A DNA stretch of 64,000 nucleotides. It comes from a virus. Its lineage: Duplodnaviria; Caudoviricetes. Position numbers and translations under genes: made by a program. The notes under the pieces were generated by a model, which worked only from the letters and a program-made list of their open reading frames with translations, ran no database searches and was not told where the DNA came from. Position 1 is the stretch's first letter; the number at the start of each line of letters is the position of its first letter. Positions 4,190 through 63,829 of this stretch are shown here, piece after piece. The stretch covers positions 87 through 64,086 of the IMG/VR virus record IMGVR_UViG_3300025133_009649; one strand, given 5' to 3'.

Positions 4190-5440
4190 ATGAAAAAAAA
4201 GAAGATTTTTGTGATTTCTGATCATCCTTTTTCTCCATCGGGAGTTGGAACGCAAACAAGAAATGTTATTGAGTCTCTGATATCAACTGGAGAATATTCT
4301 TTTATTTGTTTTGGTGGTGCTATAAAGCACGATAATTATCAACCGCAAAAAATAGATCCTCACGGTGAAGATTGGGTAATTTATCCAGTTGATAATTATG
4401 GTTCACAAGAGACAGTTAGATCTATCATTCGTACAGAAAAACCAGATATGTTATGGTTTATGACAGATCCTAGATTTTTTCCATGGTTATGGGAGATAGA
4501 GGACGAAATTAGATCATTAATACCAATGGTATATTATCATGTTTGGGATAATTATCCTTATCCAGTTTTTAATAAAGTTTGGTATAATTCATGTGATCAT
4601 GTTGCATGTATCTCAAAAGTTACTCATGATATTGTAAAAACAGTTGCACCAGATACTGATTCACAGTATATACCACATGCTGTGAATTCTGAAATATTTA
4701 AAGCTTTAGAAGAAAAAGAAATTCTAGAATTAAGGAAGCAAGCAGGGCTTAACAAAGATGACTTTATTATATTCTGGAATAATCGTAATGCAAGAAGAAA
4801 ACAATCCGGTAGTTTAATTTTTTGGTTTGCTAAATTTTTAGATAAAGTTGGCAAAAATAAAGCTAAACTTATAATGCATACGGAACCAAATGATCCAAAC
4901 GGACCAGATTTAATTGCACAAATTAATTCGTTAGGACTAATAAATGGTGAAGTTAGATTTTCGAAACAGAAAGTAGAACCTCAGCATTTAGCAGCAATGT
5001 ATAATATGGCAGACGTAACGGTTAATATAGCAGATGCAGAAGGCTTTGGTTTGGCTACTTTAGAATCATTATCTTGCGCAACACCAATAGTCGTTACGAT
5101 GACTGGTGGTTTACAAGAACAAGTTACTGATGGCGAAAATTGGTTTGGTATTGGTATCGAGCCAAACTCTAAAGCAGTTATTGGTTCTCAAGATATTCCC
5201 TTCATCTATGAAGACCGAATTAGTGAAGACGATTTTATCGAAGCATTAGAAAAAATTTATAAAATGTCAAAAAAAGATCGACAGATGCTTGGTTTAAAAG
5301 GCAGAGAACACGTGATGAAAAATTATAATTTTGATAAATTTCAAGAAACCTGGAGGGAAACAATTAAAAATATTCATAATAAATTTGGATCTTGGGAAAC
5401 AAGAACCGGTTATAAATCATGGGAATTACTAGAGGTTTAA
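4190..5440 (+). CDS. Glycosyltransferase, GT4-like (GT-B fold)
   Basis: SGVG near the N-terminus, YIPHAVN, NRNARRK, EGFGLATLES and TGGLQEQV. Confidence 0.9.
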   Translation: MKKKKIFVISDHPFSPSGVGTQTRNVIESLISTGEYSFICFGGAIKHDNYQPQKIDPHGEDWVIYPVDNYGSQETVRSIIRTEKPDMLWFMTDPRFFPWLWEIEDEIRSLIPMVYYHVWDNYPYPVFNKVWYNSCDHVACISKVTHDIVKTVAPDTDSQYIPHAVNSEIFKALEEKEILELRKQAGLNKDDFIIFWNNRNARRKQSGSLIFWFAKFLDKVGKNKAKLIMHTEPNDPNGPDLIAQINSLGLINGEVRFSKQKVEPQHLAAMYNMADVTVNIADAEGFGLATLESLSCATPIVVTMTGGLQEQVTDGENWFGIGIEPNSKAVIGSQDIPFIYEDRISEDDFIEALEKIYKMSKKDRQMLGLKGREHVMKNYNFDKFQETWRETIKNIHNKFGSWETRTGYKSWELLEV

Positions 5441-5441
5441 A

Positions 5442-7463
5442 ATGAAGAAAGTTTGTATAAAGGGCCCGTTTTTAACTCAATCAGGTTATGGCCATCACGC
5501 TAGAACAGTTATAAGAGCACTGAGAACAAGAGAAGATCTGTTTGATATATATCTACACCCAATTACCTGGGGAAAAACCAATTGGCTTTGGCAAGACGAT
5601 GAAGAAAGAAGATGGATCGATCTTGCTTTAGAAAAAACTATAGCTTATAATAATAAACATAATGGCAACCCAATTTTTGACATATCAATTCAAGTTACAA
5701 TTCCCAATGAATGGGCAAAAATAGCTCGATATAATATCGGCGTTACTGCAGGCATAGAAACTACTAAAATTTCCCCACAATGGATTGAAAAGTCGGAAAT
5801 AGTGGATAAAATTTTAACAATCAGTAAACATTCTAAAGATGTTTTTGCTAATACAGTGTATGAAGCCACCAGGAATGATACTGGAGAAGAAGTAACCTTC
5901 AAATGCCAAAAGCCTGTTGAGTATATAAACTATCCAGTAAGAAAATTTGATTCTGCAGAATTAGATCTAAATTTAACTACTGATTTTAATTTCTTGGCCA
6001 TCGCGCAAATAAGCCCTAGAAAAAATATTGAGCAATTAATAAAATGTTTTATTGAAAAATTTCAAGATGAAGAAAATGTTGGATTGGTTATAAAAGCCAA
6101 TATGGCAAAAAATTCTTTAATTGATCGAATTAACAGTGCAAATATAATAAAACAATCAGTTTTGCAATATGGTGAAAAAAAATGTAAAATTTATTTATTA
6201 CATGGATTTCTAAATGACAATGAAATGGCTTCGTTGTATACGCATCCTAAAATAAAAGCAATGGTTTCAACTACTCACGGTGAAGGATTTGGACTTCCCT
6301 TATTTGAATCAGCATACTATGGACTTCCAGTTATTGCAACTGACTGGTCTGGTCATTTAGATTTTCTTTATAAACCTACTAAACAAAAAAACGGTAAAAT
6401 AAAAAATAAACATTTATTTTCTAAAATTAGTTATACCCTTGGACCTGTACAAAAAAGCGCTGTATGGGATGGTGTATTGGAAAAGGAGTCTATGTGGGCT
6501 TATCCTGAAGAAGGTTCAATTAAGATGAGTCTTGGAGAACTTTATAAAGACTATGGTCGTTTTAAAAAACGAGCAAAAGAACTACAGAAGTGGGTGTGTG
6601 AAGAGTTTACAGAAGACAAAATTTATAAGCAATATGTTAAGTATATTTTTGGTAATGATTATACAGATATCGATATACAAGATTTACCAAAAATATCTCT
6701 CGTAACATCAGTATATAAAGCAAGTGAATATATAGAGCAATTAATGGAAAACACCACTAATCAAACTGTGTTTAAAGATAAGTGTGAGTGGATAATATTA
6801 AATGCTAATGAAAGTGGGGATGATTTTGAAGAAGAAGTTATTCTAAAATACAAGGAAAAATATCCTGAAAATATAGTTTATAAGCGTCTTAAAGAGGATC
6901 CTGGTGTCTACGCAGTCTGGAATATGGGAATTAAAATGTCGACCGGCGAATTTATTACTAACATTAATTGTGACGATCGTCGTGCCCTACATGGAATCGA
7001 AAGACAAGCATCTGTATTATCAACAAAGCCAGATGTTGATTTAGTTTACAATGATTCTTATGTGGTCAAAGAGCCAAATATAACATTTGAAAATATTACT
7101 TCAGGAAGCCCTCAATATAATCATGAGCAGTTTTCGAAAGAAGCCATGTTAAGAGCCAATTTACCACACAACAATCCTATGTGGAGAAAAAGTTTACATG
7201 ATAAACACGGATATTTCAATGAAAAACATGGGTCTGTATCTGATTGGGAGCTGTGGCTGAAATGTGCTTTTGAGGGCAGTAAATTTATGAAAATCGATTC
7301 TGTTTTGGGTGTTTATTATTTCAATCCAACAGGAATTTCAACTAATCCAGAAAACGACTCTTGGAAGAAAGAAGAAGAGAAAGAAGTATTTAAAAAATAT
7401 TTTAGTATGTTAAGAAAAGAAGACGCGTCACTACCTCTACCTGATGGTAATCTAGTGTTATGA
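5442..7463 (+). CDS. Bifunctional glycosyltransferase, GT4-like + GT2-like fusion
   Basis: N-terminal part has SGYG, PRKN, GEGFGLPLFE and WSGHLDF. C-terminal part has PKISLVTSVYK, WNMGI, NCDD and DWELWL. Confidence 0.9.
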   Translation: MKKVCIKGPFLTQSGYGHHARTVIRALRTREDLFDIYLHPITWGKTNWLWQDDEERRWIDLALEKTIAYNNKHNGNPIFDISIQVTIPNEWAKIARYNIGVTAGIETTKISPQWIEKSEIVDKILTISKHSKDVFANTVYEATRNDTGEEVTFKCQKPVEYINYPVRKFDSAELDLNLTTDFNFLAIAQISPRKNIEQLIKCFIEKFQDEENVGLVIKANMAKNSLIDRINSANIIKQSVLQYGEKKCKIYLLHGFLNDNEMASLYTHPKIKAMVSTTHGEGFGLPLFESAYYGLPVIATDWSGHLDFLYKPTKQKNGKIKNKHLFSKISYTLGPVQKSAVWDGVLEKESMWAYPEEGSIKMSLGELYKDYGRFKKRAKELQKWVCEEFTEDKIYKQYVKYIFGNDYTDIDIQDLPKISLVTSVYKASEYIEQLMENTTNQTVFKDKCEWIILNANESGDDFEEEVILKYKEKYPENIVYKRLKEDPGVYAVWNMGIKMSTGEFITNINCDDRRALHGIERQASVLSTKPDVDLVYNDSYVVKEPNITFENITSGSPQYNHEQFSKEAMLRANLPHNNPMWRKSLHDKHGYFNEKHGSVSDWELWLKCAFEGSKFMKIDSVLGVYYFNPTGISTNPENDSWKKEEEKEVFKKYFSMLRKEDASLPLPDGNLVL

Positions 7464-62651: not shown

Positions 62652-62662
62652 GAGGTACTAAT

Positions 62663-63829
62663 ATGCCCTCACATAAACCAGAATATGGAAACTTTTTTGA
62701 GTTTAAAAAAGATGATGTTTATCACAACAGAATAAAGACTTTCCCTGAAGTTGATTTTATGATATACACCGGTTCTGTATATTATAATAATGAGAACCAA
62801 AATAAAGAAAATCCTGATATACCAGTTGGGCACATCAGTCTTTATGATTTAAATGTTAATCGGAAAGCTCATGCCGCCGGACAAGATACTCAGCTAATAA
62901 CTCCTTTTGTTACTAAAGGTGGTTCTTTTTTCAATTTTAAGACGATATCAACAAGTGATTTTAATTTAGACTTTGTATATGGAGATAAAGTAGAGGGTTC
63001 TTATCCTTTAACTGCCAGTATTTCAATTGACACATATGATCCTGCGCTAACAACAAATAAGAAGAATGTACTCTATCCCTTGAGAAACACTCTTGATCAT
63101 TATACTATTTTAAGTCCTCATTACGCTTATTCTTCATCTTACGGCGAGAAAGAATTACAGCCATTGAATTTAATAAGCATACCCTCTATCTTCTATGGTT
63201 CAAGCATCAAGAAAGGTAGTGTTGTATTAAAGTACTATGTTACTGGTACTTTAAAGGCTGAAGCTTCAGACACGAATAGGGATGGCCGCTTGATACAAAC
63301 GTCTGGGTCTACAACCGGCGAAGTAATTGGCGTTGTTTTATATAATGAGGGGTTTTTATATATTACTTCCAGCACCAATATCAGCACCCACACAGAGGCA
63401 TACAAACCTTTGGATAGCACACCATATAGCGCCTCATGGCATTACTTTGCAAATACCGGCTCATACAGTTCTGTTTCTTCAAGTTACTCGCTACTGTTCA
63501 AGGGAGTAAACTATGTGGAGACTATGACTATGTTCGCGCATGCCAAAGAAAACCAACTTAATTATTCAAATAATCCAACATTTTTATCAAAAAATATTAA
63601 TGCGTATTCCGCCCACGATGTATATCATGAGAATTCTCAAGTAACTGCAAAAAATATTGTTTCAAGTAGCTACAAAAATTATTCTGCTAGTTTTAAGCCT
63701 GTCACTTATATTTCTAAAGTTGGTATATACGATAAAGATAAAAATTTAATTGCGATCGCAGGCTTGGCCAACCCTGTAAGAAAATTAGAAGAAAGAAGCT
63801 ACACATTTAAACTTAAGTTAGATATATAG
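62663..63829 (+). CDS. Virion structural protein (baseplate/tail-associated), paralog of the previous gene
   Basis: GVVLYNEG, MFAH...QLNYSNNPTF and TYISKVGIY...NLIAIAGLANPVRK...FKLKLDI. Confidence 0.6.
   Translation: MPSHKPEYGNFFEFKKDDVYHNRIKTFPEVDFMIYTGSVYYNNENQNKENPDIPVGHISLYDLNVNRKAHAAGQDTQLITPFVTKGGSFFNFKTISTSDFNLDFVYGDKVEGSYPLTASISIDTYDPALTTNKKNVLYPLRNTLDHYTILSPHYAYSSSYGEKELQPLNLISIPSIFYGSSIKKGSVVLKYYVTGTLKAEASDTNRDGRLIQTSGSTTGEVIGVVLYNEGFLYITSSTNISTHTEAYKPLDSTPYSASWHYFANTGSYSSVSSSYSLLFKGVNYVETMTMFAHAKENQLNYSNNPTFLSKNINAYSAHDVYHENSQVTAKNIVSSSYKNYSASFKPVTYISKVGIYDKDKNLIAIAGLANPVRKLEERSYTFKLKLDI

Follow-up and report, generated by a model that had tools for sequence, protein, structure and literature searches.

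Clusters of glycosyltransferase (GT) genes in large marine phages, and virion glycosylation in actinobacteriophages and giant viruses, are already known. In actinobacteriophages, a few GTs O-glycosylate the C-termini of capsid and tail-tube proteins (Freeman et al. 2023, as cited in excerpts of PMC12619734). For giant viruses, passages of PMC9614988 describe N-glycans on the chlorovirus capsid, glycans on the fibrils of Megavirinae, chlorovirus GTs that are mostly soluble and mimivirus glycogenes grouped in clade-specific clusters, and the chlorovirus protein A075L is presented as a GT-B xylosyltransferase in part of PMC11571054. The marine T4-like phages P-SSM2, S-SCSM1 and S-SCSM2R carry cell-wall or lipopolysaccharide (LPS) clusters with many GTs, nucleoside diphosphate (NDP)-sugar epimerases and a TagD-like cytidylyltransferase, as outlined in sections of PMC12801897. 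Here we analyse a GT locus in a 64,000-nucleotide stretch of viral DNA, hereafter the window (positions 87 to 64,086 of IMG/VR record IMGVR_UViG_3300025133_009649), together with tail and baseplate proteins of the same window that are rich in the tripeptide class [ST][GAS][ST].

The source phage is an uncultured marine T4-like myovirus with a genome of roughly 180-195 kb, of which the window covers about one third. Its GT locus is two-tiered, consisting of a conserved pair of GT4 genes followed by a hypervariable cassette that runs up to a small membrane protein and a late sigma factor. What is new is this bounded two-tier locus in an abundant uncultured lineage, the natural cassette-less variants of it, and a conserved, pattern-specific enrichment of [ST]G[ST] in five distal tail-protein families that is not seen in T4. 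The original prediction held that the cluster builds a xylose- and uronate-containing glycan on [ST][GAS][ST] motifs of the phage's own tail proteins. Cluster and enrichment are both real; the proposed link between them did not survive comparison with relatives. Our preferred reading, at a probability of about 0.4, is that the phage glycosylates an acceptor of its own making in the cytoplasm, probably a protein of the virion, rather than remodelling the host surface; this figure includes the small share assigned below to the motif being the glycosylation site.

Results

A conserved pair of GT4 genes

Relatives of the source phage include complete IMG/VR genomes (here G013, G014, G017 and G020 are named where needed) and, judged by homology, three cultured distant relatives: Flavobacterium phage immuto, Microcystis phage Mel-JY01 and Rhodothermus phage RM378. 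The first tier of the locus and its left neighbour are as follows:

3406-4185, + strand: PD-(D/E)XK exonuclease, conserved left neighbour of the GT4 pair (Pfam PDDEXK_1, E 6.7e-17; phrog_69 exonuclease)
4190-5440, + strand: GT4a, soluble GT-B glycosyltransferase (Pfam Glycos_transf_1, E 5e-15, 55.9 bits; phrog_2170 over its full length)
5442-7463, + strand: GT4b (residues ~1-402) fused to a GT2 domain (residues 419-541) (Pfam Glycos_transf_1 and Glycos_transf_2)

An E-x7-E segment is readable in the translations of both GT4 proteins, and the phrog_2170 match on GT4b spans residues 2-402. The trio of exonuclease, GT4a and GT4b is syntenic in G013, G014, G017, G020, immuto and Mel-JY01. GT4a is 57-63% identical to its homologues in four complete relatives and 29-31% identical to those in immuto, Mel-JY01 (where it lies in two pieces) and RM378, which has only this member of the pair. 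For the GT4 part of GT4b the corresponding values are 47-57% in G013, G014, G017 and G020 and 32-34% in immuto and Mel-JY01, whose counterparts (409-455 amino acids, aa) are without the GT2 domain. Matches to PF00534 were present in 17 of 17 further large relatives, as well as in G013, G014, immuto, Mel-JY01 and RM378, and there was none in T4; among the records examined, none came from a relative without the core GT4 pair. In the survey of sigma-factor loci described below, GT4a and GT4b score only 4 and 6 of 80, which is an artefact of the survey's 10-kb flank and not absence.

The best solved relative of GT4a in a PDB sequence search is B736L of chlorovirus NY-2A (3oy2, E 1.7e-11), and its matches also include BshA, MshA, TreT and sucrose-phosphate-synthase-like enzymes (E 6e-10 to 3e-3); GT4b had no PDB match. 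None of the 17 PDB matches of GT4a (E <= 0.01) bears the name of GtfA or GtfB, the priming pair of serine-rich-repeat adhesins. Among phage records, GT4a matches the same seven records as the 339-aa tail protein described below and five distant siphovirus records. In two siphoviruses, distant GT4a homologues belong to small sugar modules. The module of the cyanosiphovirus S-CBS4 (6929-9295), flanked by the portal and head-protease genes, also has a galactosyltransferase and a methyltransferase, and that of Tetrasphaera phage TJE1 (2917-8260), upstream of the terminase, has a nucleotidyltransferase, an epimerase and a methyltransferase.

A cassette of GTs and sugar-nucleotide enzymes

The second tier measures 11.4 kb in the window and comprises the GT2 domain, six further GT-like open reading frames (ORFs) and five nucleotide-sugar or tailoring enzymes, among them two members of the short-chain dehydrogenase/reductase (SDR) family:

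7460-8302, + strand: Nucleotid_trans GT-A type glycosyltransferase (Pfam PF03407, 24.3 bits against a cut-off of 22)
8274-9158, + strand: exostosin-like GT47, C-terminal part of the domain (Pfam PF03016, E 8.2e-22; RXYLT1_C)
9155-9919, + strand: GT34-like candidate, a lead only (ESM Atlas neighbours with Glyco_transf_34 in 48-98% of members)
9921-10829, + strand: GT-B-like candidate, a lead only (ESM Atlas feature and structure neighbours Glyco_trans_1_2, RXYLT1_C or Exostosin; TM 0.59-0.77)
11028-11747, + strand: GT_PLOD-type GT-A glycosyltransferase (Pfam PF25342, E 2.2e-16, 60.2 bits)
11810-12574, + strand: weak GT2/GT7-like ORF, sub-threshold (Glyco_transf_7C 19 bits, cut-off 23; Glyco_tranf_2_2 16.5 bits, cut-off 27.3)
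12520-13551, + strand: UXS/ArnA-like SDR, UDP-glucuronate decarboxylase-like (Pfam Epimerase, E 1e-31)
13544-14407, + strand: short UGDH-like dehydrogenase, 287 aa (Pfam N-terminal and central domains only)
14400-15926, + strand: B12-binding radical-SAM enzyme (Pfam Radical_SAM and B12-binding; HpnJ/PhpK-like, all below NCBIfam cut-offs)
15939-16847, + strand: NDP-sugar epimerase/4,6-dehydratase, the second SDR (Pfam E 1e-58; LegB, GalE and RmlB below cut-offs)
16844-17248, + strand: small sugar-phosphate nucleotidyltransferase, RfaE domain II/TagD-like (Pfam CTP_transf_like, E 4e-13)

Across 4190-17248, five GT-like ORFs lie above Pfam cut-offs (six GT domains), one is sub-threshold and two are leads, which together reproduce the eight ORFs and nine domains originally predicted. 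The two leads (9155-9919 and 9921-10829) have no Pfam, NCBIfam or PHROG match, and the Atlas look-up gives leads, not proof. None of the 13 island proteins has a transmembrane (TM)-like segment.

The exostosin-like ORF matches the GT47 domain well above its cut-off (78.3 against 33.4 bits), although the match covers only profile positions 143-292 of 293 and the gene is sporadic among relatives. Its PDB matches are EXT1/EXT2 (E 4e-5 to 5e-4), with A075L not among them, and it is 41% identical to a protein of Synechococcus phage S-SKS1. The predicted UDP-glucuronate and UDP-xylose chemistry is only partly supported. The UXS-like SDR, for which the ATG at 12571 appears a likelier start than the listed TTG, has human UXS1 as its best PDB match (E 8e-29, against 3e-18 for GalE), yet scores 96.7 bits on the NCBIfam UDP-xylose synthase model, far under the cut-off of 294. 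In the UGDH-like protein the catalytic-Cys segment aligns; however, the NDP-sugar dehydrogenase match stays just below its cut-off (184.8 against 189.8 bits, profile positions 67-296 of 413), and the C-terminal UDP-binding domain (PF03720, UDPG_MGDP_dh_C) is found neither there nor elsewhere in the contig. With a homologue of similar length (293 aa, 48% identity) in the complete genome G014, the protein may represent a short form that has been conserved, and not a damaged gene. The radical-SAM enzyme is likely a methyltransferase-type tailoring enzyme, and the nucleotidyltransferase reaches 76.6 bits on rfaE_dom_II (cut-off 181.5) and 54.5 bits on TagD (cut-off 165.4) in NCBIfam.

Cassette content varies widely between relatives

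The gap between GT4b and the sigma factor, calculated from coordinates, is ~8-23 kb in most large relatives and only 0.9-1.0 kb in G017 and in the fragment G030. We surveyed 80 sigma-factor loci with a 10-kb flank, only 55 of which have at least 9 kb upstream. Of the window's cassette GTs that lie within this flank, GT47 was found in one of the 80 loci; the other four (the GT34-like, GT-B-like and weak GT2 ORFs and GT_PLOD) were found in none. These counts are lower bounds on sampling. Homologues of the sugar enzymes were more widespread: the two SDRs in 60 (15939-16847) and 28 loci, the UGDH-like protein in 23, the nucleotidyltransferase in 17 and the radical-SAM enzyme in 11.

The cassette regions of the 55 loci contain 515 ORFs that fall into 221 clusters. 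Pfam searches with 139 cluster representatives, standing for 433 of the 515 ORFs, returned predominantly families of glycan biosynthesis and tailoring, led by GT2 (8), radical SAM (7), RmlD (6), epimerase (5), Glyco_trans_1_2 (5), FkbM methyltransferase (5) and GT1 (5). The relatives' cassettes also hold TPP-enzyme and transketolase-like families (4 and 3 representatives), CTP_transf_3 (3), formyltransferase (3) and PIG-L deacetylase (3); together with FkbM, these hint at nonulosonic-acid, N-formyl or O-methyl sugars in other members of the lineage.

Five tail-protein families are enriched in [ST]G[ST]

Motif counts were scored against shuffles of each protein's own composition. Five of 14 structural ORFs show an enrichment of the motif, which none of 22 other ORFs shows at comparable counts:

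39277-40803, + strand: gp6-adjacent structural protein (16 motifs, 3.15 per 100 aa, z 4.4)
40822-47088, + strand: 2088-aa structural protein with a Laminin_G_3 domain (25 motifs, 1.20 per 100 aa, z 3.1)
47114-52513, + strand: 1799-aa structural protein (23 motifs, 1.28 per 100 aa, z 3.4)
61632-62651, + strand: 339-aa structural protein (9 motifs, 2.65 per 100 aa, z 3.2)
62663-63829, + strand: 388-aa structural protein (12 motifs, 3.09 per 100 aa, z 4.7)

Taken together, the five proteins hold 85 motifs where 39.9 would be expected, and [ST]G[ST] (35 against 11.9) carries most of the excess; as the five were picked by the motif itself, pooled z-scores are inflated. The control patterns [ST][ST][GA], [GA][ST][ST] and [ST][NDQE][ST] showed no enrichment. 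Eight other structural ORFs had no motif excess, and the 4260-aa and 1386-aa ORFs are depleted. In T4, gp12, gp34 and gp37 have about one motif per 100 aa, as their composition predicts, and the pooled ratios for T4 tail proteins are 0.96 and 0.72. The enrichment predicted for a subset of structural proteins is therefore real, pattern-specific and absent from T4 tail proteins.

Apart from a tendency for neighbouring residues to be hydrophobic or aromatic, the sites have no extended flank in common. Paralogy among the five proteins is limited to a C-terminal domain of the 339-aa and 388-aa proteins; the motif is accordingly an enriched tripeptide class and not a repeat unit. Proteoglycan xylosylation sites are characterized by an acidic Ser-Gly context, and nothing resembling it was seen at the motif sites.

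The gp6-adjacent protein has 62 complete homologues, every one with more motifs than expected (z 1.7-6.9), and enrichment likewise extends to each of the 43 distinct homologues of the 388-aa protein (median 2.92 per 100 aa). At 37-50% overall identity, conservation of individual sites in the gp6-adjacent family is strong (TGS27 in 50/51, SSS274 in 51/51, TGS363 in 49/51, TGS451 in 51/51), and its motif Ser/Thr residues are retained more often than other Ser/Thr (0.78 vs 0.60, p 0.002). No significant difference of this kind is seen in the 388-aa family (0.64 vs 0.57, p 0.2). The homologues in immuto and Mel-JY01 are enriched too, and a genome-wide scan of G017, covering 99 ORFs of at least 150 aa, finds high counts paired with z > 4 in these five families only.

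The AlphaFold2 (AF2) model of the gp6-adjacent protein (pLDDT 77.8) is an all-beta chain of beta-sandwich domains, in which 13 of the 16 motifs lie in coil or at a coil edge. Foldseek relates it to FN3, Ig and macroglobulin-like domains, a carbohydrate-binding module (8wab_B, TMt 0.69) and unnamed phage structural proteins; a tblastn search with this protein found no match in the phage records. The AF2 model of the 388-aa protein (pLDDT 69.9) had no PDB fold match (Foldseek E <= 0.001), and PDB sequence searches with the 388-aa and 2088-aa proteins returned nothing.

Relatives without the cassette retain the motif

G017, a complete genome with terminal repeats, follows the gene order of the window throughout, starting with the trypsin-like protease at the left end and continuing to the last ORF, and has almost no cassette. 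It yields only two GT4 matches, no GT2 and no epimerase match, and BLASTP (E <= 1e-3) with the 11 accessory proteins finds nothing in it; none of its ORFs outside its own locus resembles any of the 515 cassette ORFs of relatives. Its motif densities in the five families, in window order, are nevertheless 3.90, 1.24, 1.97, 3.30 and 2.96 per 100 aa, against 3.15, 1.20, 1.28, 2.65 and 3.09 in the window, with z 4.2 and 5.6 for the homologues of the 2088-aa and 1799-aa proteins. The fragment G030, which has the same minimal layout, reaches 4.07 motifs per 100 aa in its gp6-adjacent protein.

Motif density is thus equal or higher where the 11 accessory genes are missing, and in this comparison, which was run for the cassette only, the motif does not track the xylose/uronate-type genes with which it had been paired. 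For those genes, this is the outcome that the original prediction itself had named as refuting it. Because G017 and G030 keep the density without the cassette, the motif is a conserved trait of five distal baseplate and fibre protein families, independent of the cassette. Any link between motif and GTs could involve only the conserved GT4 pair, since both relatives keep the core GT4 genes.

Late sigma factor, baseplate module and a candidate promoter

The GT and nucleotide-sugar cluster adjoins the late and tail module, as predicted. Its right border and the genes beyond it are:

17242-17445: small ORF in the 438-nt gap between cassette and membrane protein
17452-17712: small ORF in the same gap, 86 aa, GTG start, with two CxxC pairs, zinc-ribbon-regulator-like
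17687-18088, + strand: small two-TM membrane protein, conserved right border of the cassette (KD19 maximum 2.48, hydrophobic windows 7-38)
18051-18746, + strand: gp55-like late sigma factor (phrog_234, E 2.8e-7)
24228-37010: 4260-aa ORF with hydrophobic segments (KD19 up to 2.2 between residues 978-3973), no Pfam match
37039-37050, + strand: promoter-like element TAACTATTTATA upstream of gp25, with a second exact copy at 60436-60447 upstream of ORF 60465
37080-37478, + strand: gp25, baseplate wedge (Pfam GPW_gp25, E 1.5e-16)
37481-39277, + strand: gp6, baseplate wedge (gp25 and gp6 PHROGs: phrog_261, phrog_219, phrog_10646)

The small membrane protein has homologues in 41 of the 80 sigma loci and in G017, and structural ORFs follow directly after the sigma factor. 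The 4260-aa ORF, which could be a tape-measure or ejection protein, contains a GC-rich stretch (0.48 at 34-36 kb) and has a 3684-aa homologue in G017 with 25-34% identity.

TAACTATTTATA has exactly two copies in the window, each ~20-30 nt upstream of a start codon. Over 160 loci, CTATTTATA occurs 44 times on the + strand and 8 times on the - strand, and 31 of the 44 are upstream of gp25. On this pattern TAACTATTTATA/CTATTTATA is a candidate late promoter distinct from the T4 late promoter TATAAATA, whose 11 matches against 10.6 expected show no positional pattern. A near-copy, AAACTATTTAAA, stands just upstream of the minus-strand protease gene (62-796). Scans of 1-20000 for sigma-70 promoters and terminators gave results near shuffle expectation. 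TAACTATTTATA is so sparse that the timing of the island cannot be derived from it. Nor would timing decide the acceptor, since in chloroviruses the GT genes belong to the early class and act on a late target (according to passages of PMC9614988).

The window and its lineage

Except for 86 bases, the window spans the whole of a viral contig of 64,086 bp, which CheckV rates at ~35% of a genome. GC content ranges from 0.30 to 0.48, no tRNAs were found in the window, and all long ORFs but one are on the + strand. At the left end lie two conserved neighbours:

62-796, - strand: trypsin-like serine protease with a signal-peptide-like N-terminus, the window's only minus-strand gene
832-2139: PIN-domain/PhoH ATPase fusion, 435 aa, in the conserved block left of the GT4 pair (82% identical in G017)

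The protease is kept beside PhoH in G017 (53% identity) and G020 (38%). Megablast of 1-20000 against the phage records gave no match and no close cultured relative. Full-length homologues of gp6, ~31% identical, occur in only 6 of 50,697 phage records: Mel-JY01, four records of immuto and the 484-kb metagenomic phage LR756508. IMG/VR holds 130 relatives by gp6 and at least 591 by the sigma factor, several of them complete genomes of 181-195 kb, some with terminal repeats. Moraphages were considered as a description of the lineage and set aside: the jumbo phages of PMC12619734 stand apart from the T4 group, and immuto, RM378 and Microcystis go unmentioned in the excerpts of that source.

Discussion

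The anatomy of the locus and its conservation pattern can be read directly from the genomes, as can the motif statistics; the order of priming and extension, the sugars made and the acceptor we infer. In the reading that we favour, the locus would be a wholly cytoplasmic, glycan-building system in which the GT4 pair primes an acceptor common to the whole lineage, while the cassette would supply unusual nucleotide sugars and then extend and tailor the glycan in a strain-specific manner. The acceptor would be a protein that the phage itself makes, probably one of the virion, and its modification would take place in the cytoplasm, either ahead of assembly or in the course of it.

Two lines of evidence point this way. 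Besides the soluble nature of all island proteins, the membrane steps of surface-glycan pathways are missing: Bac_transf (PF02397), Glycos_transf_4 of the WecA/MraY type (PF00953), Wzx (PF01943, Polysacc_synt) and Wzy_C (PF04932) were found in none of 11 records (eight complete marine relatives, immuto, Mel-JY01 and RM378), and Pfam scans of the window's ORFs returned none of these initiation, flippase, polymerase and ligase families. In addition, the phages that keep GT4a have Flavobacterium, Microcystis or Rhodothermus as recorded hosts, and those of the first two hosts keep GT4b as well, which argues for a lineage-wide, phage-intrinsic acceptor. Weak pointers to the virion come from the chlorovirus relative of GT4a, B736L, from the mostly soluble GTs of chloroviruses and the clade-specific glycogene clusters of mimiviruses, and from the position of the S-CBS4 homologue between portal and head protease. 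Another weak pointer is a UDP-galactopyranose mutase-like gene (11443-12594) in the tail region of RM378, ~2 kb downstream of its homologue of the 339-aa protein. The predicted virion target accordingly stays plausible in general, while the motif no longer ties it to the cluster.

Several points weigh against this reading. A hypervariable glycan cassette is equally expected from serotype-type remodelling of the host surface, cyanomyovirus GT clusters are usually read in that way (in the relevant sections of PMC12801897), and the missing membrane steps could be borrowed from the host. GT4 enzymes also use small molecules, as the PDB matches of GT4a to BshA, MshA and TreT illustrate, and B736L itself has no known acceptor according to passages of PMC9614988. 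Neither TATAAATA nor TAACTATTTATA was seen as a late-promoter-like element upstream of the GT genes. RM378 has GT4a, yet its one homologue of the 339-aa protein contains a single motif in 416 aa, and the co-occurrence of GT4 pair and motif families is inseparable from shared ancestry, no relative without the pair having been found. The acceptor, finally, is pure inference.

Remodelling of the host envelope is the alternative that survives best, and we regard it as possible though rather unlikely. Here the GT4 pair and cassette would act on lipid-linked or polymer intermediates of the host (O-antigen, capsule, S-layer or cell-wall glycan), with initiation, export and ligation provided by the cell; the effect would be to block superinfection, keep progeny off debris or alter recognition by grazers. 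The gene content of the cassettes, with RmlD, epimerases, GDP-mannose dehydratase, FkbM, CTP_transf_3, formyltransferase and PIG-L, does resemble bacterial surface-polysaccharide clusters, and its hypervariability between close relatives recalls O-antigen loci; the similar clusters of P-SSM2, S-SCSM1 and S-SCSM2R have been given this interpretation in print (parts of PMC12801897). Yet an initiating phosphoglycosyltransferase, flippase, polymerase and ligase are missing from all 11 records, and the island proteins are without TM-like segments. The core enzymes, moreover, are kept across hosts of different phyla and envelopes, so that a host acceptor would have to be a very widely shared intermediate.

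It is improbable, in our view, that the motif is itself a sequon, that is, that the [ST][GAS][ST] tail and baseplate proteins are O-glycosylated at these sites, originally with the xylose/uronate glycan attributed to this cluster. With G017 and G030 lacking the cassette at equal or higher density, the xylose/uronate link is removed, and the sole surviving form has the conserved GT4 pair glycosylate the motif and the cassette merely extend the glycan. Such a role would suit the pattern-specific excess of [ST]G[ST], its restriction to five families genome-wide in G017 and its absence from T4 tail proteins, as well as the better conservation of motif Ser/Thr in the gp6-adjacent family, the modelled coil positions of most sites there, and the presence of motif-rich families and GT4 pair in the same phage records. 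That co-occurrence is, however, confounded by common descent; the Ser/Thr of the 388-aa family are no better conserved than others, and the RM378 homologue is without the motif despite GT4a. The conserved central Gly and hydrophobic neighbours fit a beta-turn, and a structural turn feature is more likely than a sequon. The most specific proposal, that the GT4 pair O-glycosylates [ST]-G-[ST] turns on the five distal baseplate and fibre families while the cassette diversifies the glycan into virion serotypes, is improbable too; were it true, this would be the first tail-apparatus glycosylation system in phages of Gram-negative-type hosts, in a lineage distributed globally in marine and fresh waters.

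Glycosylation of phage DNA at a modified base, or of a small metabolite for host takeover, is also improbable: the GT4 pair does sit in a DNA-metabolism block beside PhoH and the PD-(D/E)XK exonuclease, the PDB neighbours of GT4a include small-molecule GT4 enzymes, and DNA-glycosylating phage GT-B enzymes are known (cited in excerpts of PMC12619734), but a hydroxymethylase of the ThyA family (PF00303), which supplies the acceptor base in T4-type DNA glycosylation, is missing from four of five records (G017, G014, Mel-JY01 and RM378; only immuto has one). The gene needs of known DNA sugar modifications, furthermore, are far exceeded by eight GT-like ORFs with sugar and tailoring enzymes.

GT clusters are common in large marine phages and their targets have never been measured. 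In the present lineage the acceptor question is tractable, with a bounded locus, a swappable cassette and the near-cassette-less variants G017 and G030, and it is directly testable in immuto and Mel-JY01, which are cultured and have the same core pair and motif-rich tail proteins. Should the acceptor prove to be the virion, tail-apparatus glycans would join, as a new factor, those that shape the host range, stability and marine decay of phages. Should it prove to be the host surface, the glycans on cells would be undergoing large-scale rewriting by lytic phages. Either outcome would alter the annotation of such "auxiliary" genes. A literature search on tail-fibre glycosylation and on Mel-JY01 found nothing useful.

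As in the actinobacteriophages, where cytoplasmic phage GTs act on structural proteins, GT genes here lie near structural genes. Those phages are siphoviruses of Gram-positive-type hosts whose glycans have been measured, whereas the present phage is a T4-like myovirus with eight GT-like ORFs plus sugar-nucleotide enzymes and with its capsid and tube genes outside the window. The giant viruses share soluble virus-encoded GTs, their own nucleotide-sugar enzymes and cluster content that varies by clade, and B736L is the best solved relative of GT4a; unlike this phage, they are viruses of eukaryotes, and their acceptors are the capsid protein or fibrils. O-antigen and capsule loci likewise hold hypervariable GT, sugar-nucleotide and tailoring genes between conserved flanks, but the phage island has no initiating transferase, Wzx, Wzy or ligase and no membrane protein inside it. 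With GtfA/GtfB of the serine-rich-repeat adhesins, only the logic of two GT4 enzymes plus variable extenders is alike. The cyanomyovirus clusters come close in content, combining GTs, an epimerase/SDR and a TagD-like gene in a marine T4-like phage. They belong to a different lineage, gp6 of the present phage being only ~31% identical to that of any cultured phage, and compared with them the GT4 pair and the bounded, variable cassette beside the late sigma factor are specific to the lineage described here.

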